From: Candidatus Uhrbacteria bacterium
GTDB lineage: Bacteria > Patescibacteriota > Patescibacteriia > UBA9934
Assembly: GCA_018673485.1 (NCBI GenBank)
Contig: JABHCP010000005.1
Span: forward strand, 64,102-128,101
Direction of reading: 5' to 3'
Length of the DNA: 64,000 nt
A model generated the notes under the pieces. That model saw only the letters and a list, made by a program, of their open reading frames with translations. It ran no database searches and was not told the DNA's origin. A program made the translations under genes and the position numbers. Shown here in pieces: positions 1 through 55,230 of this stretch. Position 1 is the first letter of the stretch. Each line of letters opens with the position of its first letter.

Positions 1-138
1 GTGGCGCTTGAGAAAAAAGTCGAAGAAGTTGTCCATGTGATCCTCTGGTCTGTTGACCGGGGTGAAAGTCCACCAAAACCTAGAATCGAGTTCTAAACTT
101 TGGCGGACCCTGCGAGGTTCCATTGGTTCTCGCAGGAG

Positions 139-540
139 TTAGGGGTGACGGCGAGGATGGCCACGACCACCTCTACGCTGGTTGCCCATGTAGTAGTGGT
201 TGTGGACGGTCTGCCGACCATTTTGGCGGTTGCGACGTCGCGCCGGCTGACCAGTGGCCAGGCGGTACACGAATGGCACTCCATACCAGAGGGCGAGGAT
301 GGGGAGGGAGATGGGCAGCGAAGCTGCGATGGCGTTGACCATCACGGTGCGACGCACCAGAGTGCTGATAGCACCACCACTGACACCAAAGACCGAGAGG
401 CCAATGGCAATCAAGTAAATGGGTGAACACATCAGCACCGTCCAGATGGCCCAGCTTCCCCAAGCTGCGAAGGCCAGCGCCACGATCTCCATGAGGAGTT
501 GTGGAACCGATCCGACGAGCTGTCCAAGTTGAGCGATCAT
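139..540 (-). CDS. small polytopic membrane protein, 133 aa, in a high-GC island; C-terminal Arg/Gly/His-rich tail
   Basis: Long ORF in a 60+% GC segment; three or more hydrophobic helices; aaggagaatacgATG Shine-Dalgarno; conserved 40-nt upstream element shared with the 809..1018 gene. Confidence 0.5.
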   Translation of the reverse strand: MIAQLGQLVGSVPQLLMEIVALAFAAWGSWAIWTVLMCSPIYLIAIGLSVFGVSGGAISTLVRRTVMVNAIAASLPISLPILALWYGVPFVYRLATGQPARRRNRQNGRQTVHNHYYMGNQRRGGRGHPRRHP

Positions 541-647
541 CGTATTCTCCTTGTGAAAGATGTTGGCCCATCAGTACTCACAATCTAGTTATGCGTATTG
601 ATAGGCCGCGGGGATATTGTCTCCCCGCTAGTTGAAGTGCAACCTCT

Positions 648-812
648 CTAGAGGTTTGAGGGCGGTCCCTTGCTACCGTGACCGGTGGCGCCGTGCCAGC
701 ATTCGCCGGCAATGTCGCTCAAGGGGAGGTTTCCGCTGAGCCACCACAGGATCAGGATCCCTGCAGTAAGGGTGACCTCACCCAGTGTGCGCAGCTTTTT
801 CTTCAGATTCAT
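648..812 (-). CDS. small hydrophobic peptide (54 aa, MNLKKKLRTLGEV...), start overlaps the stop of the upstream gene (ATGA)
   Basis: ggaggcgaaATG Shine-Dalgarno; single TM helix; translationally coupled to 809..1018. The ORF track extends it to 920, but the internal ATG with the Shine-Dalgarno is preferred. Confidence 0.4.
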   Translation of the reverse strand: MNLKKKLRTLGEVTLTAGILILWWLSGNLPLSDIAGECWHGATGHGSKGPPSNL

Positions 813-1018
813 TTCGCCTCCGGGCGATAGTTGTCGAAGCTGCTGGAAGTCCCCAGCAGTGCCTCTATGAAGAGAACAAATGGCCACAGGCCAGTGCAGA
901 TCAGGAAGATCTGAAAGCACTCGTGCTTGAGCCTTTTCCCCAGGATGGGGTTGATCGAGATCAGTCCTACGAGTAGGCCAATCGCGATCGAAAACTGGTC
1001 GCTAATGAATTTGATCAA
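809..1018 (-). CDS. small membrane peptide, 69 aa, TTG start
   Basis: aaaggagacatcTTG Shine-Dalgarno; two hydrophobic helices; conserved upstream element. Confidence 0.5.
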   Translation of the reverse strand: MIKFISDQFSIAIGLLVGLISINPILGKRLKHECFQIFLICTGLWPFVLFIEALLGTSSSFDNYRPEAK

Positions 1019-1107
1019 GATGTCTCCTTTGAACCATCGATACTCACAAGCTAGTTATGCGTATTGATGGGCCGCCGGTCTAGTGAAGACCGGCGAGGGG
1101 AGGGGTG

Positions 1108-1371
1108 TTAGAACTTGTGATAGATCAGCAAGCCCCAGCGAAACCAGACGCCCATGATGAATAGGGCAATGCTCGAGAGCACCGTGGTGCTGTTGAGCGG
1201 GTCGGGTTGCACGTTCATCGCTGAGGCGATGAACGTGTCGTACGCGATGGCGCCAACGGCGCCTAGGAGGGCACCGGCGATGCCGGCGAGCATGAAGGTG
1301 AAGAAGAGCATCACCAACTTCCTGTCAGTCGAATCGGTCGCGACTTCCATGGGGGGTGTGGTGTTGTCCAT
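1108..1371 (-). CDS. small membrane protein, 87 aa
   Basis: High-GC ORF; two TM helices; TTGACT-17-TATGCT promoter upstream (minus strand) at about 1400-1440. Confidence 0.5.
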   Translation of the reverse strand: MDNTTPPMEVATDSTDRKLVMLFFTFMLAGIAGALLGAVGAIAYDTFIASAMNVQPDPLNSTTVLSSIALFIMGVWFRWGLLIYHKF

Positions 1372-1473
1372 TTCAGCTCCAGCTTCAGCATCAGCGGCCC
1401 TTCATCACGATAGACTTCGCAATAGGACTGCTAAGACTAGCATAGAATTAAGCTCTTGTCAAGTCAAGGAGCC

Positions 1474-1499
1474 AAAAAATCGACTAACTTTAGTCGATT
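1474..1499 (-). terminator. rho-independent terminator after the PilB-like gene (aatcgactaaagttagtcgatttttt on the minus strand)
   Basis: Inverted repeat followed by a T-run, directly downstream of the pilB stop. Confidence 0.6.
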
Positions 1500-1511
1500 A
1501 TATCAAGTCAC

Positions 1512-1557: not shown

Positions 1558-3381
1558 TCAGAATCCAGTTACTCGTGCGATCTCTTCGATTGATGTTTGA
1601 CCTTCCATGGCTTTCAAGAGTCCGTCTTGGGCCATGCTAATCATTCCTTGGGCTGTTGCAACTTCTCGCATTTTGTATTCAGAAACGTCGCCTTCAAGAA
1701 TAAATTTTTCAACGTTTTGATCTTTTACTAAGACTTCATAAATTCCGACTCTGCCCTTGTATCCAGTTTTATTACACACTTCGCACCCCGCTCCCTTGAA
1801 AAACTTCATCGCTTCAGTCTTTGGTTTTGGTTCGCCAGAATTTTCTGGAATGGCGTCGAGGAGTTCTTTCACTTTTGCTAGCACATCAGGTTCGATTGTA
1901 TCTTCTTGCTTGCAACTTTCACACACTCGGCGAACCAAGCGCTGACCCATGATGGCATTCAAAGATGGCGCCAACAGAAAAGGCTTCACGCCCATAGCTG
2001 TGAATCTTGGAATGGCTCCAGCTGCATCGTTGGTGTGAATGGTTGAAAGGAGTAGGTGGCCGGTGAGTGACGCTTGGATTGCAGTTTCAGCAGTTTCCAA
2101 GTCGCGGATCTCACCAACGAGCACAATGTCCGGATCTTGTCGAAGTATTGAACGCAGGCCTTTTGCAAATGTATACTCCTTTGAGTGATCGATTTGGCTT
2201 TGGTTAATTCCTTTAAGTTTGTATTCAACCGGATCTTCAAGTGTAATAATTTTAACACCAGGTTTGTTGAGTCGCTTTAAGATTGCGTAGAGCGTAGTGG
2301 TTTTACCAGATCCAGTTGGTCCAGTTGTAATTACCATTCCATGTGGTTTTTCGATTTCCTTTGCTAGGCGCTCAAACGCTGCTTTTCGGAATCCAAGTTG
2401 TTCAAATTCAAGCTCAATTGCATCAGGGTTCAAGATTCGCATTACAACAGACTCACCCCAAGCAGTCGGCAGGGTAGAGGTACGTACATCGATCTTTTTA
2501 TCTTTTTGATAAATCGTAAATCGTCCGTCTTGTGGTTTGTCGGTGATGTTTAATTTCAGTCCCGCGATCAATTTAATTCGATTGATGATTTTTTTCCATT
2601 GAGAAACATCAAGATTAGCAACATCTTGGAGGATTCCATCTACTCGCAGTCGAACAGCGATACCTTTTTCTTCAGCTTCAATATGAATATCAGATGATCC
2701 AAGTTTAACAGATGCGGCTACTACAACTGCGAGCACATCAGTAATGCTTGCTTGCTTTAGTATGCTGTCAATATCTTTAAAACTTTCCATTTGGCTTTGA
2801 TATTGTTCAAGTTCTTCCGCTTTAATTTGCACACCTTTCACAATAGTACGAATTTTTGGGAGCGTACGATAAAGTTTGACTGCATGATCAAAAGAATCCT
2901 CAGTGATTTTATATAAAACTGCATTTGTTTTAAAACGTTCACCAATACCAAACGCTATCTGTTTGATATCTTCGTTTTCAGGGTTCACGCTTGCGATTCT
3001 AAGCTCCGGGCCGGTGTAGAGAAAAGCAATTGTTTTATTCTCGATTGCTTTTTTTTCAGGAATGAGTCGTAGTGCATCTGGGCTAATTGCAAAACCTACC
3101 AAGTTTATATAAGGGATTCCTTGAACCTTTGCTAGACCCTCAGCTTCTTTTTCTTTAGATCCGATTTCGATTTTTGCCATTTTACGATCAAGCTTTTGAG
3201 CTGGTGACATTTCTTCCAATGTTTTCCCCTTTAGCTCTTCCTTGATGGGTTCCGGATCGCTCAGTACCTTCGGTGCTGTACTTGGCTTGCTAGGTGTTTT
3301 GTTTGAATCAGAAACAGGGTCCTTCGCCGGAGCGCTGGACTGTTTTAGCAAATCTTCAATTGATGGCAACCCACCCGTCAT
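1558..3381 (-). CDS. pilB: type IV pilus assembly / type II secretion ATPase (PilB/GspE family)
   Basis: Walker A GPTGSGKTT, Walker B and His-box region typical of GspE; the C-terminal CxxC pair of the family is present. Confidence 0.9.
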   Translation of the reverse strand: MTGGLPSIEDLLKQSSAPAKDPVSDSNKTPSKPSTAPKVLSDPEPIKEELKGKTLEEMSPAQKLDRKMAKIEIGSKEKEAEGLAKVQGIPYINLVGFAISPDALRLIPEKKAIENKTIAFLYTGPELRIASVNPENEDIKQIAFGIGERFKTNAVLYKITEDSFDHAVKLYRTLPKIRTIVKGVQIKAEELEQYQSQMESFKDIDSILKQASITDVLAVVVAASVKLGSSDIHIEAEEKGIAVRLRVDGILQDVANLDVSQWKKIINRIKLIAGLKLNITDKPQDGRFTIYQKDKKIDVRTSTLPTAWGESVVMRILNPDAIELEFEQLGFRKAAFERLAKEIEKPHGMVITTGPTGSGKTTTLYAILKRLNKPGVKIITLEDPVEYKLKGINQSQIDHSKEYTFAKGLRSILRQDPDIVLVGEIRDLETAETAIQASLTGHLLLSTIHTNDAAGAIPRFTAMGVKPFLLAPSLNAIMGQRLVRRVCESCKQEDTIEPDVLAKVKELLDAIPENSGEPKPKTEAMKFFKGAGCEVCNKTGYKGRVGIYEVLVKDQNVEKFILEGDVSEYKMREVATAQGMISMAQDGLLKAMEGQTSIEEIARVTGF

Positions 3382-4373: not shown

Positions 4374-4520
4374 ATTCCTCCAATTTAAGTTGCTTTCATT
4401 ATATCAAACAATTGACATTTCGGTTAAAATGTTGTATGTTTATTCACTGTTAGTTTGTAAGTGATAGAGTTACAAGTGTTAAAGGTAGCCTTTTATTGTT
4501 AAAACTAAACGATAGAATGC

Positions 4521-4535
4521 CGCTTTTAACAAAAG
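4521..4535 (+). repeat. 15-nt direct repeat gcttttaacaaaaga, left flank of the high-GC cassette
   Basis: Identical 15-mer recurs at 5279..5293 on the other side of the 4604..5200 ORF. Confidence 0.6.
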
Positions 4536-4603
4536 ACAAAATGATAAACGAGGGTGTGCCTCGGAATCAGTGCGTCGGCGGTTCAACTGTAAAGGAGGTT
4601 GTC

Positions 4604-5200
4604 ATGGCGGGTAACTACCCTGTCACAGGCGACCAGTATCGCGACATCGATCGTCGCATGTCCGAGATCAAGCGCCAGCTCAACCAGGACGAAGGTAGTC
4701 CGTCGGATCCTGTAAGAATCCTTCTGGCACTGCAGGGCATCGTTGAAGGCAACTTCGACAACGTGCCCGTTGAGCGTCTGCCCATCATCGACTGCGACGC
4801 CATGCCCTTCATCCCTAACGGTTGGAGTGCAGTAGAGCACCGCAAGGGTGGTCAGATCGAGTTCGATCCGAGCAAGATCGTCCTTCACCTGGAGTCGGAG
4901 CAGCAGCGTAGCACGATCGTTGGCAATGAGCTTCGCAAGCGACTCGAGGGCCAGCCTGTGATGAACGCCAACGTTCTTGATCATCTGCTTGCTAACACCC
5001 GTCTCATCCCCGAGGACTGGAAGGCCGATGAGCAGGGGCGTATCCGCTGCATCTACTTCTGGGGCACCATCTACCGCGACTCCGGCGGCCGCCTGTACGT
5101 TCGTTACTTGTGCTGGAACGATGGTCAGTGGCGCTGGTACTGCAGCTGGCTCGACGATCCGTGGGACAGTCAGCGCCCGGCTGCCATTCTCGCGAGTTAG
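4604..5200 (+). CDS. hypothetical protein (198 aa) in a high-GC cassette; Trp/Cys-rich C-terminus
   Basis: aaaggaggttgtcATG Shine-Dalgarno; GC content far above neighbours; no recognised motif. Confidence 0.55.
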   Translation: MAGNYPVTGDQYRDIDRRMSEIKRQLNQDEGSPSDPVRILLALQGIVEGNFDNVPVERLPIIDCDAMPFIPNGWSAVEHRKGGQIEFDPSKIVLHLESEQQRSTIVGNELRKRLEGQPVMNANVLDHLLANTRLIPEDWKADEQGRIRCIYFWGTIYRDSGGRLYVRYLCWNDGQWRWYCSWLDDPWDSQRPAAILAS

Positions 5201-5249
5201 GCACTTAGGGCTTTGTGACTTGGTTCTTTGTTCTCTAGTTCGTACTTGA

Positions 5250-5325
5250 CCGGCGCAACGTTGTTGTGTCGGTCTCTGCTTTTAACAAAAGAAGCGCGTT
5301 TACGCTTCTTTATTTGTTGAGTGAT
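5250..5325. repeat. about 75-nt boundary module: GC-rich hairpin gaccggcgcaacgttgttgtgtcggtc followed by terminator hairpin aaagaagcgcg-ttta-cgcttcttt
   Basis: About 80% identical copy at 7070..7145. Both lie between a high-GC plus-strand ORF and a low-GC minus-strand gene. Confidence 0.7.
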
Positions 5326-6084
5326 TTACTTCAGTGGTTTGGACATTTTCCACAAGAAATCAAAATATTGTTTGTGGTACTTGGCGATTTCTTTACTACG
5401 AATCGTTGTGCCGATTGGTTGGCTTGTCCAAAGTACAAAGTCCACCTTATCATCGCGTATTTGCATACCCGCAACAGAGGCAAAGTCTGCTGGAAGGATA
5501 CGGACTTTTGTAAAAGGCATATCCTTAATTTGTTCTGCTCGTTTCATTGATCCTTTTGGAAAGATAAAACGTGCTGGTATCTCACGTTGTATGCGTCGCC
5601 TGTGAAAGTCTGCAAGTACAGTTGGAATAAATTCTTTGATGGTTTGTGCATCTTCTGCAAATCCTCCAATAACGTAAAATGTTCCTTTGGTACTAAGCGC
5701 ATCCTCAAATAATGTTTTTAAACCACGCTTGCCCTTGTAGTGAAATACCTCCTGATCTTCTTTGGAGAGCTTTCGCTTTGCCTCGAGCGCAGGGATTATC
5801 TTATTCAATTCTTTTTCTTGAGCCTCAAGCTCTTCTTGTTTTCTTTCAATTACTTTTTTGAGTCGCTTTGGAGTTACCGCTTCAAAGTATTTAGTGTTCG
5901 ACATGATTACATTTGAGACAAGCCCCTTTTTCGCTAGGGAACCAAGACAATCATAAACCTGACCTCGAGAGAGGTTGGTTTTGGAGATAATGTCCTTAGT
6001 CGTCACAGACCCAAGCTCAAGGAGGTTGAGATAGATCGTCGCCTCATTGCCTGTTAGCCCGATTTTCTTTAGAAGTTCTTTCAT
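5326..6084 (-). CDS. TrmB-family transcriptional regulator (N-terminal wHTH)
   Basis: N-terminus GLTGNEATIYLNLLELGSVTTKDIISKTNLSRGQVYDCL matches the TrmB HTH; low GC, native. Confidence 0.7.
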   Translation of the reverse strand: MKELLKKIGLTGNEATIYLNLLELGSVTTKDIISKTNLSRGQVYDCLGSLAKKGLVSNVIMSNTKYFEAVTPKRLKKVIERKQEELEAQEKELNKIIPALEAKRKLSKEDQEVFHYKGKRGLKTLFEDALSTKGTFYVIGGFAEDAQTIKEFIPTVLADFHRRRIQREIPARFIFPKGSMKRAEQIKDMPFTKVRILPADFASVAGMQIRDDKVDFVLWTSQPIGTTIRSKEIAKYHKQYFDFLWKMSKPLK

Positions 6085-7069: not shown

Positions 7070-7145
7070 GACTGGCGTGACGTTGTTGCGTCGGTTTTTG
7101 TTTATATCAAAAGAAGCGCTTTCGCGCTTCTTTATTTGTTGAGTG
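7070..7145. repeat. about 75-nt boundary module, copy 2; also serves as the ftsH terminator
   Basis: See 5250..5325. Confidence 0.7.
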
Positions 7146-7147
7146 GG

Positions 7148-9043
7148 TTACTCCTTTGACTCTGTAGCTTTTGGTCCCATGAGCTCTTCGAATCTTTCTT
7201 TCTCGATAGTTTCTTTCTCCAGTAGTTCTGCAACTGTATTTTCTATCTTGTCTTGGTTTTCTTTAATCACCTTGTTTGCAGTTTCGAGTGCTTCGCTTAC
7301 TAGTCGTAGGATCTCTTCATCGATTAGTTGAGCGGTATTCTCGGAATAGTTGCGTCTGTCTTTGATTTCCTTTCCAAGGAACACTAGGTCTTCTCGTTCT
7401 CCGTATGTTCGTGGTCCCATTTTTTCACTCATTCCGTATTGAGTGATGAGGTTTTGTGCGAGTTTTGTTGCACGTTGCAAATCATTTGATGCACCAGTAG
7501 TAATGTCACCAAAAGTTGATTTCTCAACTGCGTACCCGGCAAGCATCATAGCGAGCTCATCGATAAATTCTGCACGGAAGTGCATCTTGCGGTCCTCACT
7601 TGGCAAACTCATTGTGTAACCAGCAGCTCGCCCGCGTGAGATTATTGATATCTTGTGCACGTCATCACAGTGCGGAAGCATGTGGCCAACAATCGCGTGT
7701 CCTGCCTCATGGTACGCAGTAATTTTCTTTTCTTTTTTAGAAAGGATGCTGCTCTTGCGCTCAGGTCCGAGCATAACTTTTTCAATAGCGTCCAAAATGT
7801 TCTTTTGTGCAATAATTTTTTTGTTGTGGCGTGCTGCGAGAATCGCACCTTCGTTCATGATGTTCATCAGGTCCGCTCCAGAGAATCCAACAGTACGTTC
7901 GGCAACGCGTTGAAGATCAACGCTTTCCTCGAGCGGTTTGCCTTTGGCATGAATTTCAAGAATCGCTTTTCTGTCTTTAAGTCCTGGGAAGTCAAGAGTG
8001 ATTCTTCGATCAAATCGTCCAGGTCTCAAAAGCGCTGGATCAAGTACGTCTGGTCGGTTGGTTGCGGCGATTACGATAATTCCGTTGTTTGGAGAGAACC
8101 CATCCATTTCTACCAAAATCTGGTTTAGTGTTTGCTCACGTTCATCATTTCCACCACCAAGCCCGGCGCCACGCTGACGTCCAACTGCATCAATCTCATC
8201 AATGAATACTATGCACGGTGATGCTTTCTTTGCTTTTGTAAATAAGTCACGCACACGTGATGCTCCAACTCCAACAAACATTTCTACAAACTCGGATCCG
8301 GAAATGTGGAAGAAGGGAACATTGGCTTCTCCTGCCACAGCTCTTGCGAGCAGTGTTTTACCAGTTCCTGGAGGACCCATCAGCAAAACTCCTTTTGGAA
8401 TTTTTGCTCCTACCTCTGCATACTTTTTTGGATGCTTTAGAAAGTCGACAACCTCAGTTAGTTCTTCTTTTGATTCTGCTTCTCCGGCCACGTCCTTAAA
8501 TGAAACACGATCTTTTTTACTAGTTACTTCTTTTGCTTTTGACTGACCAAATGTCATGGCCTTGTTGTTCGCTCCTTGCATTTGATTGATCAGGAACCAG
8601 AAGATTACCAAGAAACCAATTAGGAAAATCAGTGTTGGCAAAATTGATCGCAATAGTGAGATCCACATACTTGGCTCGACAACCTGAATGTTTACCGCTG
8701 AGAGTTCCTCACTAGTGATTCCGTAATTGGTAAGTAAATCAGAAAGTGATTCACCAGACTCTTTTTTTACTTCAAACTCAGTTTCATCAAGCGCGAAGAT
8801 CTTTAGTGTATTTTCCTCGATTTCAATGCGGTCGATTTCTTGATTGGTAATTTTCTCAACAAGAGTACTTGTACCGATTACTTCCGGTTCATCGCCGTTA
8901 AGGTTATATGATGAAAAAATGACTCCCAATGCTAATACGACAAGGAAGAAAATGATTAAGTTTTTTGATAGTGGCTTCATAGGTATTATAGTTATAGCGT
9001 CCTTTAGCGCCTGCATGATGCCAAAAAACAGGGGTTTTGGCAA
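7148..9043 (-). CDS. ftsH: ATP-dependent zinc metalloprotease FtsH
   Basis: N-terminal TM helices; AAA Walker [27 protein letters not shown] region; HEAGHAIVG zinc motif. Confidence 0.95.
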
Positions 9044-9120
9044 CCTTGATTAAAATGCACTTAATAAAGCAAGAGACACCCGGGGTGGGGTGTCGAGACG
9101 TGGGGCCGTTTGGTGGCTGG

Positions 9121-9396
9121 CTAGGTTGCCAGGTAGAGTTTGGCCCTATTTGCGTTGAGCTTGAAGCCACGGGAGAGAACGCCAAATACCTTGATGAGAA
9201 TCGCCGAGACGAGCAGGGTGCTTACCATGAAGCCGACAGTCGTGATTACCAGCGCTGGGTCGGCTTGTTGGATGACCATTGGGCTCATCAGTCCGATGAG
9301 GGCGAGTACGCCAATGACAACGCTTGTGCTGGTCGCGTAGACCGCGATGCTCACAAAGAGGCATAGGCCATCGATAATTTGGTTTGTGCGGTTCAA
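9121..9396 (-). CDS. small membrane protein (91 aa), TTG start, high-GC island
   Basis: aaaggagcgcaccTTG Shine-Dalgarno; two or three TM helices. Confidence 0.45.
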   Translation of the reverse strand: MNRTNQIIDGLCLFVSIAVYATSTSVVIGVLALIGLMSPMVIQQADPALVITTVGFMVSTLLVSAILIKVFGVLSRGFKLNANRAKLYLAT

Positions 9397-11278: not shown

Positions 11279-11387
11279 ATATTGTGCCTGGCGCCGACAA
11301 TATATAGATATTGCGGGCAGCAGGTATTAATAATTAGTTATTTGTTGAACGTCGGAAGTGTAGCGTTTTGGCCAAATATTGTCAATA

Positions 11388-11448
11388 TGCTAAGGTTCAA
11401 CCAATCCTGATGCGCACCTTTGCGCACATGAACATGGAGGTCAGGATG
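11388..11448 (+). promoter_or_regulatory. conserved leader of HAD paralog 1: hairpin ATCCTGA...ggaggTCAGGATg that pairs the start codon region
   Basis: About 90% identical to 12433..12494; the inverted repeat includes the start codon. Confidence 0.55.
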
Positions 11449-12351
11449 TCCTTTAAGATCGTGGGCGTAAAGTCGCTTGCAGAGCTCGAGGAGCTTTTGT
11501 GCACGAAGGGTGAGGACGAGCAGATTCTGGCTGTCAACCTTACCCTTACCAGTATCCAGAAGTTCTTCGCGGCTTTTGTGGCGGCGGTAGTGGCCGCATT
11601 TGACTTCGATGGCACTGTAACGGCGCATAGTCAGTTTACAGCTCTTCGTAACAACACGAAGACCATGACACGGGCCATGGCAGAGGAGGATGAGGCAGAT
11701 GCAATGTCGTACTTCGGTGGCGGCATTCTCTCTGACTACGGCCACATCTCGTTCATCTTCCGTACAGTTCGGCGCATGCTGTCTGCACGGTTGGATCGCA
11801 ATGACTTCAGGGAAGCAGTTACGGAGATCAAGCCGCGTCCTGGGGCTATTGAGCTGATGCAGACGTTTTTGCCACGGATGGCTGGAGCGATCGCTATCAT
11901 TTCTTACGGACTGTGGGACGTGATTCGTATCTGGACAGACTTCTACGCTTACCATGTTGTGCGTAGCGATGCGATCCACGCTCTCAAGCTTGATTGGAAG
12001 CGTGACATGCTTGATGGGTGTCAGCTCACCACTGTTGTCAGCGATGGCAACAAGGGCCATCGATTCGCTGTGCACTGCGCGCTCAATGAAGTGGAACCTA
12101 AGACAGCGATCGTGATCGGCGATTCACCCATTACCGATTTGTCCATGCTCCGTATGGGAATTGGTGTTCTGCTGATCCCCAATACCGAGAAGGTGTTGAG
12201 GAATATCAAGAAGCAGGAGGCGGAGATGCGCGCTGACCACCGTGTTGGCCCCTTCCTTGCACCTGCGTTCATGCATGTGCAGGCGTTTTTCCTCTCGGAC
12301 GATCTGACCCCGCTTGCGAAGATTCGTTTGGGTGAGATCACGTGTGACTGA
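11446..12351 (+). CDS. HAD-superfamily hydrolase-like protein, paralog 1 (high GC)
   Basis: Motif I FDFDGTVT, motif IV-like VIGDSPITD; ggaggtcaggATG Shine-Dalgarno. Confidence 0.6.
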   Translation: MSFKIVGVKSLAELEELLCTKGEDEQILAVNLTLTSIQKFFAAFVAAVVAAFDFDGTVTAHSQFTALRNNTKTMTRAMAEEDEADAMSYFGGGILSDYGHISFIFRTVRRMLSARLDRNDFREAVTEIKPRPGAIELMQTFLPRMAGAIAIISYGLWDVIRIWTDFYAYHVVRSDAIHALKLDWKRDMLDGCQLTTVVSDGNKGHRFAVHCALNEVEPKTAIVIGDSPITDLSMLRMGIGVLLIPNTEKVLRNIKKQEAEMRADHRVGPFLAPAFMHVQAFFLSDDLTPLAKIRLGEITCD

Positions 12352-12432
12352 TCCGATCAGTCAATTTCTACCCCGTGCTAGCCTCTCAGGCCGGCGCGGG
12401 TCTTTCGCTTTTTTTTGGGAAATGAAAAGGCT

Positions 12433-12494
12433 ATGCTAAGGTTCAACCAATCCTGATGCGCATTGTCGCGCACATGAACACGGAGGTCAGGATG
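12433..12494 (+). promoter_or_regulatory. conserved leader of HAD paralog 2 (same hairpin)
   Basis: See 11388..11448. Confidence 0.55.
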
Positions 12495-13412
12495 TCCTTT
12501 GATATCGCTGAGGCACACAATTATCTTGCATTGATCAATCGGATTGGGGACATGAGGGAGGGTGAGGTTTTGCTGGTTGTTAACCGGCAGGTTACGACGC
12601 CTGAGATTGCGCTTGCGGGCATTCGTGATGCTGAACTGTGTGTCTCGGACTATGATGACACAATGACACTTAAGGGTCAGTATCTGATTATGGGCGAACA
12701 TTTGATGCGCGATGGTCGTGGTGATGAGGACCTTGCCGATGCGATGCGGGTCTTTCACGGTCAGCATGTGACTCCTTCGGATGTGATGAGACTCATTGGT
12801 CGTTCTATGGGGCGGTTGATCGAGTCGCGTCTTGGGATGGCTGAGTTTCAGCATGCCGTGCAGCATGCAAAGCCTCGGTCAGGAGTTCATGAGCTTATCC
12901 TAAGCTTTGAGGATCAATCCAAGGTTGACGATCCATTTGTAGTCGTTACCTCTGGAACGCGTGATTGGGTTCAAGCCTGGGAGACACACTATTTGTCATT
13001 ACCATCTACCCTTCGAGTGCATGGCTTGAAGCTCAAGTGGAGTAAGGCTGGCGCCCGTCAGCTGCTTGGCTGTGATATTGAGACCATGGTTTGCGTGCAG
13101 AACAAGGCGGTCAAGGTTGCTATGGAGGCTACGCGTTGCAACCTTTCGATAGGTCAGGTTATGACGGTTGGGGATTCGCCACTGATCGACCAGACCTTGT
13201 TGACAGCCGAGTTGATTCGAGGATCTGACGGGCAGGTGGTTCGCCCTGGTGTGCATGGTGTGCTGCTGATCGAGGATTGTCAGACAGCTCTAAACCATCC
13301 GCATGGAAAGCACCATATGCGTGCGGCATTCGATGCTGGCGTGCCTATGTTCTTGATCTCTCCGTCGCTCGTGCCCCTCGCGCAGATTCGGCGTGGTGAG
13401 ATCACCGCGTAA
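12492..13412 (+). CDS. HAD-superfamily hydrolase-like protein, paralog 2 (diverged from paralog 1)
   Basis: Motif I SDYDDTMT, motif IV TVGDSPLID; same C-terminal ...IRxGEIT; same 3' element cccgtgctagcctctcaggccggcgcggg after the stop. Confidence 0.6.
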   Translation: MSFDIAEAHNYLALINRIGDMREGEVLLVVNRQVTTPEIALAGIRDAELCVSDYDDTMTLKGQYLIMGEHLMRDGRGDEDLADAMRVFHGQHVTPSDVMRLIGRSMGRLIESRLGMAEFQHAVQHAKPRSGVHELILSFEDQSKVDDPFVVVTSGTRDWVQAWETHYLSLPSTLRVHGLKLKWSKAGARQLLGCDIETMVCVQNKAVKVAMEATRCNLSIGQVMTVGDSPLIDQTLLTAELIRGSDGQVVRPGVHGVLLIEDCQTALNHPHGKHHMRAAFDAGVPMFLISPSLVPLAQIRRGEITA

Positions 13413-14301: not shown

Positions 14302-14331
14302 AGTACGCAGTTCACAGTGCTCAGTATGCAG
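14302..14331 (+). repeat. tandem heptamers agtacgcag-ttcacag-tgctcag-tatgcag between stop codon and terminator
   Basis: Same architecture after gyrA, trxA and fusA. Confidence 0.6.
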
Positions 14332-19443: not shown

Positions 19444-19473
19444 TATTTTATTTTCGTGATTGGTCCGATCGGA
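19444..19473. promoter_or_regulatory. 30-nt near-perfect palindrome tcgtgattggTCCGATCGGAccaatcatga
   Basis: Palindrome centred on CGATCG; a second copy of the core is at 19548..19563 (atgTCCGATCGGAcat). Confidence 0.5.
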
Positions 19474-19747
19474 CCAATCATGAAAATTTTCATTGTTAAG
19501 TAAAGTCTTGAAATCGACTTAAAGGGCAGTTTTGAAAAATTCATGATATGTCCGATCGGACATAAAGTGGCAGGTAAAAAGTTGTGAAGAAAAAGGCGTT
19601 ATCAAAGAAAAAGAAACAAATTCAATTAAAAGCCGACTCGTAGGATTGTTTTTTTAGTATGTTTGATTTTATCGCTAAGGTTGATCTTCGCTTGACCTGT
19701 TTTTATTTTTAAGCTATTCTCACGGGCGCGATTCGGATGATCCAATC

Positions 19748-20248
19748 GTGTGTTCACATCAGAAACCAGAGGAGAGATTCTTGGCACTTATCGAAGTCGT
19801 TATCAAGACCCGCGTGGCTATCAGCTCCAAGCGAGCAGACTCCATCCGTCGTGGCCTACTCCACATCCTGTGCATGCGTACTGAGGGCCGTATTCGGCAA
19901 AGCCTCAGTGACATGCCTGATGAGCGGGTTCTGCGCGTGCGCTTCTTCAGACGCGACGCTATGCGCGTCACGGTCACTCAGACCGAACCTATCTTGGGGG
20001 ACCGCTGGCTGGTTACCAAGGACGGGCTGGTCGACGAGATCGATCGCTTCTTCCGTAGCGTGATCAACAGCGACCTGCACATGGTCTCTCAGTTCTCGGC
20101 GCAGTGGATCTTCAAGGGCGAAGGCGCATCTGACGACTCCGAGGAGGTCACTGAGCCGTCGATCGATACACCGATCTCCATTGGTGGTCGTCAGGCTTTC
20201 CGCAGGCGCATGGTCGGTGCATACAGCCGTCTGGGCAGTGAGGTTTAG
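19748..20248 (+). CDS. hypothetical protein, high-GC cassette
   Basis: Consistent high-GC coding frame; the true start may be the internal TTG near 19775 after aggagag. Confidence 0.45.
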   Translation: MCSHQKPEERFLALIEVVIKTRVAISSKRADSIRRGLLHILCMRTEGRIRQSLSDMPDERVLRVRFFRRDAMRVTVTQTEPILGDRWLVTKDGLVDEIDRFFRSVINSDLHMVSQFSAQWIFKGEGASDDSEEVTEPSIDTPISIGGRQAFRRRMVGAYSRLGSEV

Positions 20249-21651: not shown

Positions 21652-22347
21652 ATGAGTGAAAAAGACATAGAAGGCTTTGCTAAGTCGATCGGTATCGAGT
21701 ACCTAGAGGATGGTCATCTTAAGCAGGCACTAGTGCACCGGTCATATTTAAATGAACATGCAGATTTTCCATTGGGTCACAATGAGCGACTTGAGTTTTT
21801 GGGTGACGCTGTGCTCGAGTTGGTTGTCACTGAATATTTATTTCAGAATTTTGATGAACCGGAGGGTGAGCTGACTAATTATCGCGCAGCTTTGGTTAAC
21901 GGACATAACCTAGCTAAGGTAGCGCGTACAATCGATATCGAAGATCAGCTTTACTTGTCTAAGGGTGAAGCACAGGACAAAAATGAAAAGTCACGGAACT
22001 ACATTTTGGCAAACTCAATGGAATCCATCATTGGTGCTATTTATTTAGACTTTGGATGGGATGAAGTGAAACGATTTATCACCGACGTTGTAATTTCCAC
22101 CTTGCCAGAGATTTTGGAGAAAAAACTCTATATTGATCCAAAGAGTAGGTTTCAGGAAGAGTCGCAAGCTCGCATGTCTATTACACCAAGTTACAAAGTC
22201 CTGGAGGAGTCAGGACCGGATCATAAAAAGCTATTTAGAATTGGGGCATATCTTGGAAAGGAGTTGGTAGCCGAGGGAGCAGGAACTTCAAAGCAAGAAG
22301 CTCAAATCGACGCCGCTGCCAATTCACTTGAGGCTAAGAAGTGGTGA
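21652..22347 (+). CDS. rnc: ribonuclease III
   Basis: Signature ERLEFLGDAVLELVVTEYLF; C-terminal dsRBD. Confidence 0.9.
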   Translation: MSEKDIEGFAKSIGIEYLEDGHLKQALVHRSYLNEHADFPLGHNERLEFLGDAVLELVVTEYLFQNFDEPEGELTNYRAALVNGHNLAKVARTIDIEDQLYLSKGEAQDKNEKSRNYILANSMESIIGAIYLDFGWDEVKRFITDVVISTLPEILEKKLYIDPKSRFQEESQARMSITPSYKVLEESGPDHKKLFRIGAYLGKELVAEGAGTSKQEAQIDAAANSLEAKKW

Positions 22348-28388: not shown

Positions 28389-28430
28389 AATGTTTCACAT
28401 AAGCGACGATCGTCGCTTATGTGAAACATT
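28389..28430. repeat. 42-nt perfect palindrome aatgtttcacataagCGACGATCGTCGcttatgtgaaacatt between two terminators
   Basis: Related copy at 46164..46201 with compensatory changes in the middle arm. Confidence 0.7.
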
Positions 28431-28509
28431 TAGAGATTGAAAAACCGACCCACGTGGGGCCGATTCTTTTTATATTTATTTTAACTCTACCCCTCGACGG
28501 GCTCGGGAC

Positions 28510-28942: not shown

Positions 28943-30508
28943 TTAGCGAGCGTATTCAGTCGCTCGTGTTTCACGAATAACTGTTACGCGCACCTCACCT
29001 GGATATGTGAGTTCTGATTCAATCTTTTTAGCAATGTCTCGTGCTAAATTCTCAGATGAAAATTCATCGATTTTGTCAGGCCGTACGAAAACTCGAACTT
29101 CACGTCCTGCCTGAATCGCGTAAGCTTTTTCAACTCCTTCAAATTCGCTGGCAGTTTGTTCTAGGTTTTGTAATCGTTGAATGTACTCCTCAAGAGTATT
29201 GCGTCGCGCTCCAGGTCGTGCACCACTGATCGCATCCGCTGCCTTAACAATGACACCTTCGATAGTCTTTGGCTTATCTTCATGATGAGCAATTGACTGG
29301 TAGCAAAGCTCTTCTGGGAATCCAAACTTTTTCATGATGTTGTAGCCAATCTCTGGGTGCGCACCCTGCATGTCGTGGTCAACTGCTTTTCCAATATCAT
29401 GGAACAGTCCACCCTTTTTGCAATCAAATACATTAGCTCCAAGCTCTTCGGCAAGCATTCCAGAAACTCGCGCTACCTCGATTGAGTGTTGCAGCACATT
29501 CTGACCATAACTTGTTCTGAATTTAAGTCGTCCCAAGATAGAGATCAGCTTAGGGTCAATTGATGAAACTGGAATTCCAAGTTCATATAATGCGTCCTCT
29601 CCAGACTTTTTCATTTCCTTTGCCAACCCTTTCTTCGCTTCCATTACAGCGTCCTCAATTCGTGCTGGTTGAATTCGACCGTCCTTAATAAGTGCGGTAA
29701 GTGCGCGGTTGGCAACCTGACGACGAACAGGGGAGAACCCACTAATCATAATTGCCTCCGGAGTATCATCAATGATGAGTTCGCAACCAGTGAGGCGCTC
29801 AAGAGTTTTGATGTTACGCCCTTCTTTACCAATGATCCGTCCTTTCATCTCATCTGAAGGAAGCGAAACCATTGTCGTAGTAGCGTCAGAAACGTGGCTA
29901 GCAGCAAAACGCTGTACAGCCAAAGAGATTATTGAGTTTGCACGCTTTTCGATTTCTTCTTCACTGACTTGTTCAAGCTTGTGCATTCGGTTAAGAAGCG
30001 TTTCTTTCTCCGCTTCTTCAACTGCACTGAGCAATTCCTCACGAGCTTGGTCATGAGTAAGTCCAGCAATTTTTTGCAACTTATCAATTTGTTCTTGCTT
30101 TACCTCATTGACCTTAATCTTGAGCTCTTCAAGTTGCTTTTGTTCCTTTTCAAGCTTGTTTTTTCGATCCTCAACTGCGAGCAGTTGCTGGTCAAACTTA
30201 TTTTCACGATGTTGCAATCGTGATTGCTGAGATTGAATCTCGCGCCTTCGCGCCTCGGCATCTTTTTTACCTTCTTCAAGTGTGGCGATTGCTTTTTCTT
30301 TTGCCTGGAGCAGGATCTCTTTTTCTTGTGATTTTGCCTTGTTTAGGATTTTTTCAGCTCGGGCCTCAACGGACTTTGCCTTGCCTTTCATGACAATTTT
30401 TCGGACAAAGTATCCAATCAAGATTCCAAGTAAAAAGACTCCCAACCCAATAGCAATCACCATTTCTAGTGTTGTCATAGAGTATTTAGGAGTTGGAAAT
30501 GAAAACAA
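28943..30508 (-). CDS. rny: ribonuclease Y (N-terminal TM, KH domain, HD domain)
   Basis: Coiled-coil, KH GKEGRNIK, HD motif HDIGK; the start may be the internal ATG at 30478. Confidence 0.85.
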   Translation of the reverse strand: MFSFPTPKYSMTTLEMVIAIGLGVFLLGILIGYFVRKIVMKGKAKSVEARAEKILNKAKSQEKEILLQAKEKAIATLEEGKKDAEARRREIQSQQSRLQHRENKFDQQLLAVEDRKNKLEKEQKQLEELKIKVNEVKQEQIDKLQKIAGLTHDQAREELLSAVEEAEKETLLNRMHKLEQVSEEEIEKRANSIISLAVQRFAASHVSDATTTMVSLPSDEMKGRIIGKEGRNIKTLERLTGCELIIDDTPEAIMISGFSPVRRQVANRALTALIKDGRIQPARIEDAVMEAKKGLAKEMKKSGEDALYELGIPVSSIDPKLISILGRLKFRTSYGQNVLQHSIEVARVSGMLAEELGANVFDCKKGGLFHDIGKAVDHDMQGAHPEIGYNIMKKFGFPEELCYQSIAHHEDKPKTIEGVIVKAADAISGARPGARRNTLEEYIQRLQNLEQTASEFEGVEKAYAIQAGREVRVFVRPDKIDEFSSENLARDIAKKIESELTYPGEVRVTVIRETRATEYAR

Positions 30509-32068: not shown

Positions 32069-32100
32069 TTCACATTTGTCCCGATCGGGACAAATGTGAA
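32069..32100. promoter_or_regulatory. 32-nt perfect palindrome ttcacatttgTCCCGATCGGGAcaaatgtgaa upstream of the infB promoter (TTGACA-17-TATCCT)
   Basis: Same CCGATCGG core as 19444 and 19548. Confidence 0.5.
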
Positions 32101-32177
32101 AAATATGACTGGGCTCTGGAGTCTGTCGTCTGACCTCTGAAATTGACATTTTTCCCTAATTTTCGTATCCTTGCGCC

Positions 32178-34665: not shown

Positions 34666-34696
34666 CAGTACGCAGTGCTCAGTTCACAGTATGAAG
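34666..34696 (+). repeat. heptamer CAG repeats (cagtacgcag-tgctcag-ttcacag-tatgaag) after the trxA stop, before the terminator
   Basis: Same heptamers as at 14302, in a different order. Confidence 0.55.
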
Positions 34697-37581: not shown

Positions 37582-37830
37582 TTAGGGGGTGCGGCCTCCC
37601 TTGAGGTTCATCCGTAGGAACACGATGAGAGCACATGCGGTGAGCAGGCCTGGGAAGAAGGCGGCCCAGCCGCAGGCCTCGGCGTAGCTCCCGGAGGTGT
37701 CCACCAGGTGCATCTGAGTGGTCAGACCACCGAGCATCTGCAACGGGACCTTGATGAAGAACAGGCAGAGCATGGCAACCACGAAGCCACCAACGAGGTC
37801 TACCAAGTGCTGAGTAATATCATGTGTCAT
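37582..37830 (-). CDS. small membrane protein (82 aa), high-GC cassette
   Basis: ggagggcttcATG Shine-Dalgarno; two TM helices. The terminator includes palindrome gtccgattcgatcggac (37577..37593). Confidence 0.45.
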   Translation of the reverse strand: MTHDITQHLVDLVGGFVVAMLCLFFIKVPLQMLGGLTTQMHLVDTSGSYAEACGWAAFFPGLLTACALIVFLRMNLKGGRTP

Positions 37831-37959
37831 GAAGCCCTCCAGGCTTTCAGGGTACCAAGCAAGCTATCATGATTTTTACCTTTTGTCAACCCCTAAAGGC
37901 ACGCAAAAAACAATCGATCGCACTCAGTTGAGCGCGATCGAGATGTGACATAGGTGTAC

Positions 37960-38346
37960 CTAGCCCTGGGGACATACGCGGAACTCTTCCGCGTCACCCA
38001 GGGTAAGGTGGCGTGAGTCGAGGCCGTTCTGGAGCCAAAGGCGAGCCTGGTGCCCGCAATGCACCGTGGTGCCAATGAAGCAGCCGTAGCCTGCGCTGCA
38101 TCCTAGCGACATAGCGGCATTGTAGATTCTGCCACTTGAGATCTCGTAGTACGAGGTCTCGTCGTTGAGGTAGACTGCTAGGCGGTTCGGCTCGCTATCA
38201 TTGTACTCGATGCCGGCCTTGCAGTTCTGCTTGCCCCACAAGCAGTTGGCGGTGCTGGTGTCGAGGACCAAGCGGGTCGTCTCGTCCATCGGCTTGTTAC
38301 AACCGACGAGCATGAGAAGGGCCATGGTCAGGAGTCGAAAGGTCAT
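37960..38346 (-). CDS. cysteine-rich secreted lipoprotein (lipobox LVGC), high GC
   Basis: Signal peptide MTFRLLTMALLMLVGC; 10+ cysteines in the mature part. Confidence 0.5.
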   Translation of the reverse strand: MTFRLLTMALLMLVGCNKPMDETTRLVLDTSTANCLWGKQNCKAGIEYNDSEPNRLAVYLNDETSYYEISSGRIYNAAMSLGCSAGYGCFIGTTVHCGHQARLWLQNGLDSRHLTLGDAEEFRVCPQG

Positions 38347-38489
38347 GTGGGCTCCGAAGAGAGGGGGTTGAAGAGAGGGCGTTGGGGTCGATGGTCGACA
38401 GCGAAGAATAGCAGATTTCATTGATTTTGTCAACGATTGTGGTGTAAAACCTTCCCAAATATCTGCATTTTCGATAAACTTAATCCATT

Positions 38490-41486: not shown

Positions 41487-41526
41487 AGTCTAATTTTGGC
41501 CAATAATCGCGCTTTTTGTCTTGACA

Positions 41527-41560
41527 AAAGCGCGATTTTATGTTATATTTATATCCACCT
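41527..41560 (+). promoter_or_regulatory. sigma70-like promoter TTGACA-17-TATATT overlapping the leuS terminator hairpin
   Basis: aatcgcgctttttgtcTTGACAaaagcgcgattttatgtTATATT. Confidence 0.5.
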
Positions 41561-41583
41561 TCAAAACCGGACCGGAGGAATTC

Positions 41584-41892
41584 ATGTCCATTCGTACTCT
41601 CACCACGCGCTTCATCTCAGGCGTCCATACGGCTCTTCTTGTTGGGCTGGCACTAGTGGCAGTGGTCTGCTTGCTGTTGTCGTTTAGCTCCGCCGTTGAC
41701 GTCGTGGGCGTTCAAGACATCACCTGGGACAAGTATGGAGCGATGTACTCTGCCTTTGCCGTAGTGATATGCTTTATCGCGACGATCGTGCTCGAGGGGG
41801 CGTCCTGGGCCATCGGTTTGTCGATCAAGCCCTCGCTCATCGCGCTGATCAAGGGGGCTGTGCGTAACACGACCCACAACGTGGGTCGCTGA
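41584..41892 (+). CDS. small membrane protein (102 aa), high-GC cassette
   Basis: ccggaggaattcATG Shine-Dalgarno; three TM helices; terminator ccgccctggttcaccccagggcggtttgttgtt at 41925..41957. Confidence 0.45.
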   Translation: MSIRTLTTRFISGVHTALLVGLALVAVVCLLLSFSSAVDVVGVQDITWDKYGAMYSAFAVVICFIATIVLEGASWAIGLSIKPSLIALIKGAVRNTTHNVGR

Positions 41893-46164: not shown

Positions 46165-46201
46165 GTTTCACTAACTCGACGATCGTCGAGTTAGTGAAAC
46201 C
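46164..46201. repeat. 38-nt perfect palindrome ggtttcactaactCGACGATCGTCGagttagtgaaacc directly after the stop codon
   Basis: Related to 28389..28430. Confidence 0.7.
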
Positions 46202-46272
46202 TTGTGTGCTTGATTGTTTTGTGTATTATTGCTATATTTCGGGCGAAAATAATGTGAAATTAAATATATTTT

Positions 46273-50196: not shown

Positions 50197-51342
50197 CTAG
50201 AACATCATGGCGTTGCCCGTGAGAGGGATGCCATCGATGAGGTCGCCGTAGAAGGTGTCGCTGCCAGCGGCGTAGTAGCTCCACTCCAGATCGGTGACGT
50301 TGAACTGGGTCGAATCATCGCTGGCAGCACTTGCTCCTGTGGAGTCGAAGTACAGCGAGTAAGTGTACGTAATGCCAGCATTGACGATCTCGCCGAGGTT
50401 TCCGATCACGGCGTAGTCCAGGATGTCACTAGGTGCCGAGGAGCACTCGGTGCCGTCGGCGGTGTGGAAGCTCCAGTCGAGGTCGGCGTCGAGCTCCAAG
50501 CTGGTGCCGTACATGTTCAGGTTGTAGACCGCAAACCAGGCGGGGTCGGCGAGCATGGCACAGGTGTTCCAGCCAGTACCGGCGTTGTCCGTGGAGTTGA
50601 ACTCGAAGGTGAAGCCATCGAGCGGGTCAATGTCGCCACCGGAGTCGGCGCTGAGGTTGAACCGCAGTACTTCTTGCATACCGGGGATGCTCGTGCCCGA
50701 GGGGCTGTAGGAACTCAGAGCGATCGTCGGCTCGGTGATGTGCCAAACCATCTCGGTACCCTCGACGTAGTCGGTCATGGCGCGGTGGTTGTAGCTGTTT
50801 CCGCTGTAGATGCCCGTGGCCACGGCTCCTGCGTCGGACCAGTTGAGCTGCATGGTCATGCCGGGTGTGGCGACGGTCTCGGCGGTGGCGACCACGTAGA
50901 CTGCCATGATCGCGCGGCTACGTGCACAGCGCGGGATGTACATGTCCTCGTTGATGAAGGTAGCGGTGCCTCCCGAGGAGAGCGCCGCACTTGACGTGAC
51001 CAGCGATCCGCTGGTGTCCCTGTATTCCACGGTCACCGCATAGACGGTCTGGTGATCACCGTCGTTCTCGAGCACGAAGTCCATGAGTCCCAGTCGCTCG
51101 CCACTCGAGCAGAATTGGAAGATGCTCACGACCTGTCTGTCACCTGCGAGGATGATGTTCTCGCTCATGGCCGGGTGGCCAGAGACGCGCATACGCGACC
51201 GACGTGGCGGCGGCGCTGCAGTCGGCGCGGACTTCTCGTTCGCGACTGACTCATCAGCGTAGTGGTTGAACATCGGCTCGATCGGGCTGCACGCGACAGC
51301 CAGGATCAGGACCAGGAAGGAGAGAAGGGTCAGGTGTCGCAT
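50197..51342 (-). CDS. secreted lipoprotein (lipobox LAVAC), Ser/Thr/Gly-rich, high-GC cassette
   Basis: Signal peptide MRHLTLLSFLVLILAVAC; no catalytic motif recognised. Confidence 0.55.
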   Translation of the reverse strand: MRHLTLLSFLVLILAVACSPIEPMFNHYADESVANEKSAPTAAPPPRRSRMRVSGHPAMSENIILAGDRQVVSIFQFCSSGERLGLMDFVLENDGDHQTVYAVTVEYRDTSGSLVTSSAALSSGGTATFINEDMYIPRCARSRAIMAVYVVATAETVATPGMTMQLNWSDAGAVATGIYSGNSYNHRAMTDYVEGTEMVWHITEPTIALSSYSPSGTSIPGMQEVLRFNLSADSGGDIDPLDGFTFEFNSTDNAGTGWNTCAMLADPAWFAVYNLNMYGTSLELDADLDWSFHTADGTECSSAPSDILDYAVIGNLGEIVNAGITYTYSLYFDSTGASAASDDSTQFNVTDLEWSYYAAGSDTFYGDLIDGIPLTGNAMMF

Positions 51343-51472
51343 GACGTTCCTTAGTCAAGCTCGGCATTGAGCGCGCTAAAAATAGCGCTTTTTTTGCTTT
51401 TTGTCAATGCTAGAAGCAGAACGACCCCACGCCGTGTGTGGCGGGAGGTCGAGGGGAGTGGTGATCGAGTTT

Positions 51473-51841: not shown

Positions 51842-51963
51842 GTGTACCTCAGGGTTGGGGGGAAGAGCAGTTTTGCGAACAGAGCAATGTAGCCTAATTT
51901 TAGCATAAAGTCAAGGGAATGCTAGCGGTACTCGTAGGGTCGATAGGATAGCCGAAAAGTGCC

Positions 51964-52002
51964 GGCAACCCCCTCCAGCTCCCCCTTGGGAAGGGGGAGA
52001 GT
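51964..52002. repeat. GC-rich hairpin element, copy 3 (ggcaaccccctccagctcccccttgggaagggggag), upstream of rpsL
   Basis: See 1512..1550. Confidence 0.7.
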
Positions 52003-55225: not shown

Positions 55226-55230
55226 AAATA

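Follow-up and report, generated by a model that had tools for sequence, protein, structure and literature searches.

The DNA analysed in our study is a stretch of 64,000 nucleotides (the window, to which all positions refer unless a locus is named) from a metagenome-assembled genome of Candidatus Uhrbacteria, a bacterium of the candidate phyla radiation (CPR)/Patescibacteria. The left end of the window was found to contain an array of small open reading frames (ORFs) behind a pilB-like gene, and an irregular hairpin, here named E, was found in nearly every gap between them. All the array genes and elements are on the minus strand. The four peptides of the window, encoded by ORFs A to D, have been deposited as hypothetical proteins. 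A 9,180-bp contig of the same strain (L001) carries identical peptides and shows the array beyond the left edge of the window. We tentatively interpret E as a punctuation signal between the cistrons of a polycistronic mRNA.

The pilB-like gene (1558–3381) encodes an ATPase of the type II secretion system/type IV pilus with 607 amino acids (Pfam T2SSE, E = 5e-122). Its GC content at the third codon position (GC3) was 0.34, and it belongs to the upstream host context, outside the array. The gene is followed by an intrinsic terminator (1478–1499), which contained a 9-bp stem and TTTTTT and was conserved in the related locus L010. The promoter of the array, TTGACT-17-TATGCT, was found directly after this terminator (1439–1467), where an earlier note on this DNA had placed it; in the promoter scan it was the sole sense-strand sigma-70-like site of the region. 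Sequence comparison showed that the 5′ leader (1372–1438) contained a conserved GCTGAWGCTGGAG tract and the Shine-Dalgarno sequence of ORF A. ORF A (1108–1371; ATG start, 87 aa, GC3 0.84) has two transmembrane segments according to the ORF scan and hydrophobicity, and was found to evolve fast, with 25–36% identity to its positional counterparts. ORF B (809–1018; 69 aa, GC3 0.73) also has two transmembrane segments and starts with a TTG that was conserved in L010 and L013. ORF C (648–812; ATG start, 54 aa, GC3 0.75) contained one weak hydrophobic segment, and its start is coupled to the end of ORF B by an ATGA overlap at 809–812. ORF D (139–540; ATG start, 133 aa, GC3 0.66) has three transmembrane segments followed by an Arg-rich tail and was present in 8 of the 8 arrays examined. 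A fifth ORF, which is 75 aa long in L001, begins at position 36 and is cut by the window edge (1–36). The earlier note had described an operon of four co-directional minus-strand ORFs of 87, 69, 54 and 133 aa with one ATGA-coupled pair and two TTG starts. The four ORFs, their coupling and the separate operon were all confirmed, but only ORF B starts with TTG and the genes are more than four, as L001 contained seven ORFs before the terminator.

Beyond the window edge, L001 was found to contain ORFs of 65 and 92 aa, two more copies of E, a degenerate E-like hairpin after the last ORF (13 bits with the covariance model described below) and the terminator, followed by genes for Smr, TsaE, a GIY-YIG protein and TsaD. 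The terminator scan gave no terminator-like site at any copy of E or of h1, the short hairpin that precedes it, whereas the genuine terminators of these genomes carry clear U-tracts. Since there is one promoter, no terminator-like site at any E and a terminator on each side of the array, it is well supported that the array is a single transcription unit, which runs from a promoter through seven or more small orphan ORFs, most of them for membrane proteins, to a terminator. The coding signal of these ORFs, which the earlier note had left to be checked, was strong: the GC3 of ORFs A to D ranged between 0.66 and 0.84 against 0.34 in pilB, which supports their coding nature, and the dN/dS ratios against orthologues indicated purifying selection on ORF D (0.11–0.39), ORF C (0.27, against L010) and ORF B (0.23–0.56). 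ORF A and the fifth ORF were weakly constrained (dN/dS 0.5–0.9).

The gaps between the units had a constant anatomy. In 31 units, the gap length ranged between 89 and 185 nucleotides with a median of 110. The stop codon was followed by a C-rich linker (43% C), h1, an abutting E, a spacer of 10–52 nucleotides, the Shine-Dalgarno sequence and the start codon. The GC-rich hairpins lie 9–48 nucleotides after each stop codon, and the median distance from E to the Shine-Dalgarno sequence was 26 nucleotides. h1 was found to be a short GC-clamp hairpin of 6–9 bp with variable sequence and without a U-tract. In the window, its folds were CGCCGGTC-7 nt-GACCGGCG at 1073–1095 (no U-tract after it; likewise present after ORF A in L010, L012 and L013), GCGGGGA-7 nt-TCCCCGC at 608–628 (conserved upstream of ORF D in five lineages) and CCTGCGAG-12 nt-CTCGCAGG at 109–136 (conserved after ORF D in six lineages). 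The motif CTTTCA was seen by eye 0–8 nucleotides downstream of E in about a third of the units, for example at 57–62 of the window and at 1370–1375 of L024.

A 28-nucleotide core of E was present twice in the window (575–602 and 1041–1068), where shuffled sequences gave an expectation of 0.00. The two copies around this core (1029–1074 and 563–608) correspond to the near-identical element that the earlier note had reported before two of the genes. That observation stands but is incomplete, as a third, diverged copy was found at 65–110 and further copies in other gaps. The third copy lies in the gap between ORF D and the 75-aa ORF (37–138), where the palindrome is spelled differently (TCCGCCAAAG...TTTTGGTGGA) and the stem of about 20 bp is fully paired. 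This E2 subtype and the E1 subtype of the first two copies belong to one family, because relatives carry intermediate spellings, such as CCCGTCAAAG...CTTTGATGGG in L013. A covariance model (R1) was built for E, and scans were run with filters off. The three window copies, in the order given, scored 43.6 bits (E = 1.6e-10), 48.4 bits (E = 5.9e-12) and 46.9 bits (E = 1.7e-11), and the three gaps folded with z-scores of −6.1, −6.0 and −5.2, respectively.

E folds over about 42 nucleotides into an outer stem, a 1x1 mismatch, a short middle stem, another 1x1 mismatch, an inner stem and a loop of 3–5 nucleotides, with 17–20 bp in total and 20 bp in the third copy. The outer arms were CCATCA...TGATGG or CCGCCAAAG...CTTTGGYGG in our alignment, which contained 34 distinct copies from seven arrays in 57 columns. 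Standard pairs occupied 83.2% of the cells in these copies, against 30.7–44.4% when the 3′ partners were slid. Changes on both sides were found in 18 of the 20 pairs, and the covariation score was 0.49 compared with at most 0.125 in the controls; none of the 500 shuffles reached any of the observed pairing or covariation measures. An independent RNAalifold prediction returned this three-segment hairpin as well and showed compensation in 15 of its 16 pairs. The inverted-repeat ends pointed out in the earlier note are thus backed by covariation as parts of a hairpin. A resemblance of the E1 core to the Xer dif site (CGCATAA-5 nt-TTGTGAG), seen by eye, was absent from the other E subtypes and was set aside as a coincidence.

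In L011, the loops of E hold nested palindromes of about 40 nucleotides while the base of the stem is kept. CGATCG-centred palindromes are nested in these loops, which indicates that the loops tolerate insertions of about 40 nucleotides. The palindromes of this kind were found in L011 at 7864–7948, 8786–8867 and 9019–9100. They occur host-wide, and in the window they were present at 19462–19490, 28392–28440, 32078–32106, 46165–46213 and 55921–56002.

The sequence pattern also differed between the two strands. Read on the ORF-sense strand, the core stem columns contained G·U 57 times and A·C eight times. The sense fold exceeded the antisense fold in stability by about 2 kcal/mol on average and was the more stable one in 20 of 31 copies (p = 0.009), and R1 scored the sense strand about 20 bits above the antisense strand in every copy. 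Because G·U exceeds A·C in this way and the sense fold is the more stable, we consider that the sense strand is the one that folds, and it appears to be the strand under structural constraint.

E was found to be specific to the arrays. In the window, R1 matched exactly three copies, all of them on the minus strand and within 1.1 kb, with 43–48 bits, and the next best match scored 9.8 bits. The strong matches (at least 32 bits) in about 95 kb of related DNA were without exception sense-oriented and inside arrays; the sole significant match outside them scored 21 bits (L011, 15142–15187). The search for the element elsewhere that the earlier note had proposed thus gave nothing strong outside arrays and copies in the homologous arrays. 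Within the arrays, E was present in the gaps between units except for the ATGA-coupled pairs, and one short gap of L022 was without a significant copy. In the arrays linked to pilB, the last ORF was followed by E as well, although the terminal copy of the window strain and of L010 was degenerate (13 bits, not significant). Since it occupies nearly every gap, E looks like cistron punctuation and not like a gene-specific regulator. Rfam gave only two tRNAs in the window, and its matches in the array at E ≤ 5 were chance matches far below the gathering scores. The use of E as an internal promoter was also considered and rejected, as there was no sigma-70-like site at any E or h1 copy and the loop length of E is variable.

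Arrays were found in eight lineages, namely the window strain, L010, L011 (UBA12070), L012, L013, L145, L024 and L022, all of them through searches with ORF D or pilB. Six arrays (window strain, L010, L011, L012, L013 and L145) follow pilB, as does that of L024, and in L013 and L024 one or two extra genes were present between pilB and the array. The array of L022 follows genes for RNase J and a class-I tRNA synthetase (Pfam tRNA-synt_1b), so that the linkage of the array to pilB is not universal. L012 (CAYVLY010000001.1, 709,517 bp) is labelled as an uncultured Gammaproteobacteria bacterium; the synteny of a 329-aa protein, pilB, the array, TsaE and TsaD is that of Uhrbacteria and its pilB is 85–86% identical to that of the window, and the record is probably mislabelled. 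Every array opens with a terminator and a sigma-70-type promoter, and a promoter equivalent to that of the window precedes the array in L010, L011, L012, L013, L022, L024 and L145. The arrays that were followed to their 3′ end, including those of L013, L022 and L024, close with a terminator, usually with a last E-like hairpin just before it. In about ten contigs of the window strain, obtained from different samples, the array had one common arrangement, and an assembly chimera was ruled out by identical junctions in independent NCBI, JGI, ENA and Logan assemblies. The conservation of the array in a narrow clade is well supported.

The gene content of the arrays was found to be variable. Among 43 ORFs in seven arrays, GC3 ranged between 0.57 and 0.95 in all, 32 contained at least one hydrophobic segment and about half were singletons. 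ORF D was present in all seven of these arrays and in L145, whereas ORFs A, B and C and the 75-aa family were each found in two or three. ORF D with its h1 and E was followed by the 75-, 65- and 92-aa units in the window strain, directly by a homologue of the 65-aa ORF in L145, and by unrelated ORFs in L010 (77 aa) and L013. The h1+E modules on either side of ORF D were kept with it regardless of the neighbouring gene. As h1+E stays with ORF D, the pattern between lineages can be explained by differential loss or gain of [ORF-h1-E] units between direct E repeats. The differences in content map to hairpin boundaries.

The proteins of the array could not be named. None of the seven peptides gave a significant match in Pfam, PHROGs, PADLOC or NCBIfam, a result to be read with the great diversity of such families. 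ORFs A to D gave no Pfam match at E ≤ 0.1 and did not contain the N_methyl motif of type IV pilins or pseudopilins (class III signal G|FTLIE); by inspection, the 54-aa peptide contained LG-EVTLTAG without the conserved Glu5. Profile searches detected no holin family among the peptides. An exhaustive HMMER search with ORF D found only seven clusters among 1.84 billion representatives, and a homologue search with the 75-aa ORF returned only itself. ORF D contained three hydrophobic helices and a charged, low-complexity tail. Its AlphaFold2 model, with two long helices and a disordered tail, was poor (predicted local distance difference test 61, predicted template modelling score 0.31) and unfit for a fold search. 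The earlier description of small membrane peptides, none of which can be named, therefore holds, with two, two, one weak and three hydrophobic segments in ORFs A to D, respectively. The bacteriocin/immunity, holin-like and pilus-accessory roles that the earlier note had suggested for these peptides are guesses.

The high GC content reported earlier was also confirmed, as positions 1–1371 contained 56% GC against 42% in the pilB-like gene and its neighbour and a window mean of 45%. The arrays contained 53–62% GC against 40–49% in the flanks, and were 11–16 points higher in all eight lineages. Between the window strain and L010, the DNA identity was 73–81% in host genes and 82% in the block of ORFs B, C and D; dS was 0.32–0.68 in ORFs D, B and C and 2.25 in the adjacent pilB. 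The last 96 nucleotides of the array, which include h1, the terminal E-like hairpin and the terminator, were 100% identical between L001 (5705–5800) and L010 (7328–7423), and the DNA on either side of them was non-homologous. The low dS, the maintained high GC3 and the identical terminus suggest either that synonymous sites are constrained or that the array undergoes recombination or gene conversion. Recent horizontal transfer was considered as a cause of the high GC content and found unlikely, because order and context are common to eight lineages and the divergence (82%) is close to that of the host genes.

Several other high-GC features were found in the window. Scattered ORFs with a GC3 of 0.63–0.85 were present in a background of about 42% GC, without the E hairpin. 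These islands lie at 4496–5200, 9121–9396, 11368–13412, 19748–20248, 37582–38433, 41521–41892, 50197–51841 and 55340–55789. The island ORFs that were scanned had no Pfam match except for one HAD-like pair, and several were lipoprotein- or membrane-protein-like. A GC-rich repeat of 45 nucleotides (CCCCCTTCCCAAGGGGGAGCNGGAGGGGGTTGCCG core) was found at 1505–1550 and 51957–52002 (two matches against 0 expected). Both copies are just upstream of a promoter region that opens a high-GC island, and the repeat was absent from that place in L010–L013. Two tandem paralogous high-GC genes (327 and 318 aa) had flank repeats, 90–91% identical and about 1.05 kb apart, in their 5′ flanks (11386–11461/12432–12507) and 3′ flanks (12372–12410/13445–13483). 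A repeat of 83 nucleotides with 83% identity (5248–5330 and 7070–7152) contained two terminator-like hairpins; one copy follows a 234-aa high-GC ORF and the other lies about 1.8 kb away, by the 3′ end of the FtsH gene.

Our preferred reading, at somewhat less than an even chance, is that h1 and E fold in the sense polycistronic transcript, where they would serve as intercistronic punctuation, that is, as signals for processing or stability. An endoribonuclease that is double-strand-specific or guided by structure would recognise or cut the E helix, whose length of about 17–20 bp (20 bp in the third copy) is sufficient for RNase III. The newly formed 3′ and 5′ ends would be capped by h1 and the half-hairpins, and each small cistron would then gain its own stability and translation, as in the early and late mRNAs of phage T7. 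Secondarily, the E copies may act as direct repeats, between which recombination would add or remove [ORF-h1-E] units and lead to the mosaic gene content. Genes for RNase III (RNase III domain and double-stranded RNA-binding domain, 21652–22347) and RNase Y (28943–30508) were both found in the window. Repeated intercistronic hairpins are known in principle from T7, from repetitive extragenic palindromic (REP) sequences and bacterial interspersed mosaic elements (BIME), and from the attC sites of integrons; E itself has no Rfam entry, and the proteins fall into no known family. The RNase III signals of T7 (R0.3 to R18.5) resemble E as mutually similar, irregular hairpins of about 20 bp between the cistrons of one sense transcript, with internal mismatches at fixed positions and with the RNase III encoded by the host. 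E likewise is an irregular hairpin of about two helical turns (17–20 bp) inside a polycistronic transcript. The sequences of the two are unrelated, however; an extra GC-clamp hairpin precedes each E, the cleavage of E is putative, and T7 is a phage whereas E belongs to a cellular CPR operon of orphan membrane peptides. Similarly, cleavage by RNase Y near a hairpin splits operon mRNAs beside a stem-loop in Bacillus subtilis (cggR-gapA) and Staphylococcus aureus (saePQRS), and the same is conceivable for E, as RNase Y is encoded in the window; those cases are single sites whereas E is a repeated, conserved family.

Several points weigh against this reading. A·C was common (13 cells) at the two mismatch columns, where it would be G·U on the other strand. 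Since G·T is also the mildest mismatch in single-stranded DNA, the strand bias is not enough to distinguish mRNA strictly from the DNA of the non-template strand. The h1 hairpins were without strand preference. A sub-model in which the C-rich linker acts as an anti-Shine-Dalgarno sequence and pairs with the downstream Shine-Dalgarno sequence across the two hairpins was rejected, as such pairing was found in 11 of 30 units but did not exceed the linker-shuffle control (mean probability 0.37 against 0.36, p = 0.55). Cleavage and its effect on stability or translation are steps that we infer, and punctuation leaves both the high GC content and the low synonymous divergence unexplained.

If E were instead an RNA operator, bound by a protein or a small RNA and controlling the translation or antitermination of each downstream cistron, the conservation of the outer arms in sequence as well as structure, the conserved positions of the 1x1 mismatches, the fixed short median distance to each Shine-Dalgarno sequence and the frequent CTTTCA after the hairpin would all be accounted for. 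We regard this as unlikely, because E neither includes nor masks the Shine-Dalgarno sequence or the start codon, it also occurs after the last ORF with nothing downstream to regulate, its spacing to the start codon varies between 10 and 52 nucleotides, and the array itself offers no candidate for a binding protein. The operator suggested in the earlier note, understood as a protein-binding site in double-stranded DNA, is hard to reconcile with the loop insertions of L011 and with compensatory changes that pass through G·U on the sense strand only. It is very improbable that h1 and E are leaky terminators without a U-tract (attenuators), whose tandem would partially stop the polymerase and give graded expression. 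Terminators lacking a U-tract have been described in high-GC Actinobacteria, GC-rich hairpins follow each stop codon closely, and a short UUU (in CTTTCA) follows about a third of the E copies; nevertheless, no site passed the terminator scan, the genuine terminators have clear U-tracts, and at least six attenuators in series would nearly silence the distal genes, yet ORF D, the third or fourth gene, is under purifying selection. The least probable of the readings considered is that E is a selfish or neutral palindromic repeat (REP-, MITE- or Correia-like; MITE, miniature inverted-repeat transposable element) that spread within the locus without a role in the operon. Its copies are imperfect palindromes that appear to evolve in concert within an array, and host palindromes have inserted in the E loops of L011, but the copies are confined to one array, always have one orientation and one position relative to the ORFs, and have been retained with compensatory changes despite saturated synonymous divergence (pilB dS >2). 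REP/BIME elements, for example in malE-malF of Escherichia coli, resemble E in being imperfect palindromes that lie behind a cistron and are transcribed with its operon, and REP elements have been proposed to protect the upstream mRNA segment. They differ from E in their hundreds of genome-wide copies, 5′ GTAG and REP-associated tyrosine transposases (RAYT), whereas all three window copies of E are in one array and none elsewhere in the 64 kb. GTAG was not found next to the E copies of our alignment; RAYT was not searched for genome-wide.

At the DNA level, E with h1 could be a recombination site, and the [ORF-h1-E] units could be mobile through an unidentified recombinase, similar to integrons or to clusters of attC sites lacking integron-integrases (CALIN). 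The array shares with these the small, co-oriented, mostly orphan ORFs of variable content behind one promoter, as well as imperfect palindromes whose sequence is uniform inside each array and specific to a lineage, the copies of L024 being far closer to each other than to those of the window. The mosaic content with many singletons, similar arrays in two contexts (after pilB and after the class-I tRNA synthetase gene), the identical terminus, the low dS and the anomalous GC content in all eight lineages are further points in favour. We nevertheless consider this reading quite unlikely. No tyrosine recombinase (Phage_integrase) or transposase was found in the gene lists of nine related loci or in the approximately 36 window ORFs scanned, although CALIN arrays lack IntI as well. 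On neither strand did the outer arms of E fit the R″ (RYYYAAC) or R′ (GTTRRRY) boxes by inspection of the alignment, and E has symmetric 1x1 mismatches in place of extrahelical bases. Wobble pairs favour the sense (top) strand of E, and the opposite holds for attC, which folds on the bottom strand. The order of the genes (A first, D, then the 75-aa family) is largely syntenic and alike in the contigs of the window strain, ORF D keeps the conserved h1+E units on both of its sides, and deletions between direct repeats can account for the differences. The collections of phages, plasmids and viruses that were searched contained nothing similar. An origin from such elements found no support, with no blastn match in phages, no tblastn match in plasmids and no homologue of ORF D in IMG/VR; when IMG/VR was scanned with a loose E pattern, the matches were only single hairpins attributable to chance, and R1 matched one of 80 loci. 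A CPR cassette system in its own right, with h1+E as a two-hairpin site and units shuffled, lost or exchanged among Uhrbacteria in an integron-like manner without IntI, appears to us slightly less probable still; under it, frequent recombination or gene conversion would explain the high GC3, the low dS and the identical terminus.

Outside the array and the high-GC islands, a 30-nucleotide repeat, AGTACGCAGTTCACAGTGCTCAGTATGCAG, was found in three intergenic copies with 83–90% identity (14302–14331, 34667–34696 and 55230–55259).

The CPR makes up a large share of bacterial diversity, and most of its small genes and non-coding elements are uncharacterised; E is a cleanly defined structured element among them, with strong covariation. 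The array of variable orphan membrane peptides adjoins a pilus machinery that is thought to mediate the contact between CPR bacteria and their hosts. Its stable GC anomaly is an unexplained evolutionary signal: GC3 reaches 0.9 against a genomic GC content of about 42%, and the anomaly persists despite synonymous saturation of the host genes between lineages. Other islands of the genome show it too. If the hairpins were recombination sites, the locus would be a new kind of gene-cassette array. If they are processing signals, as we favour, they would illustrate how operon mRNA is punctuated in an organism whose toolkit for RNA decay is minimal.

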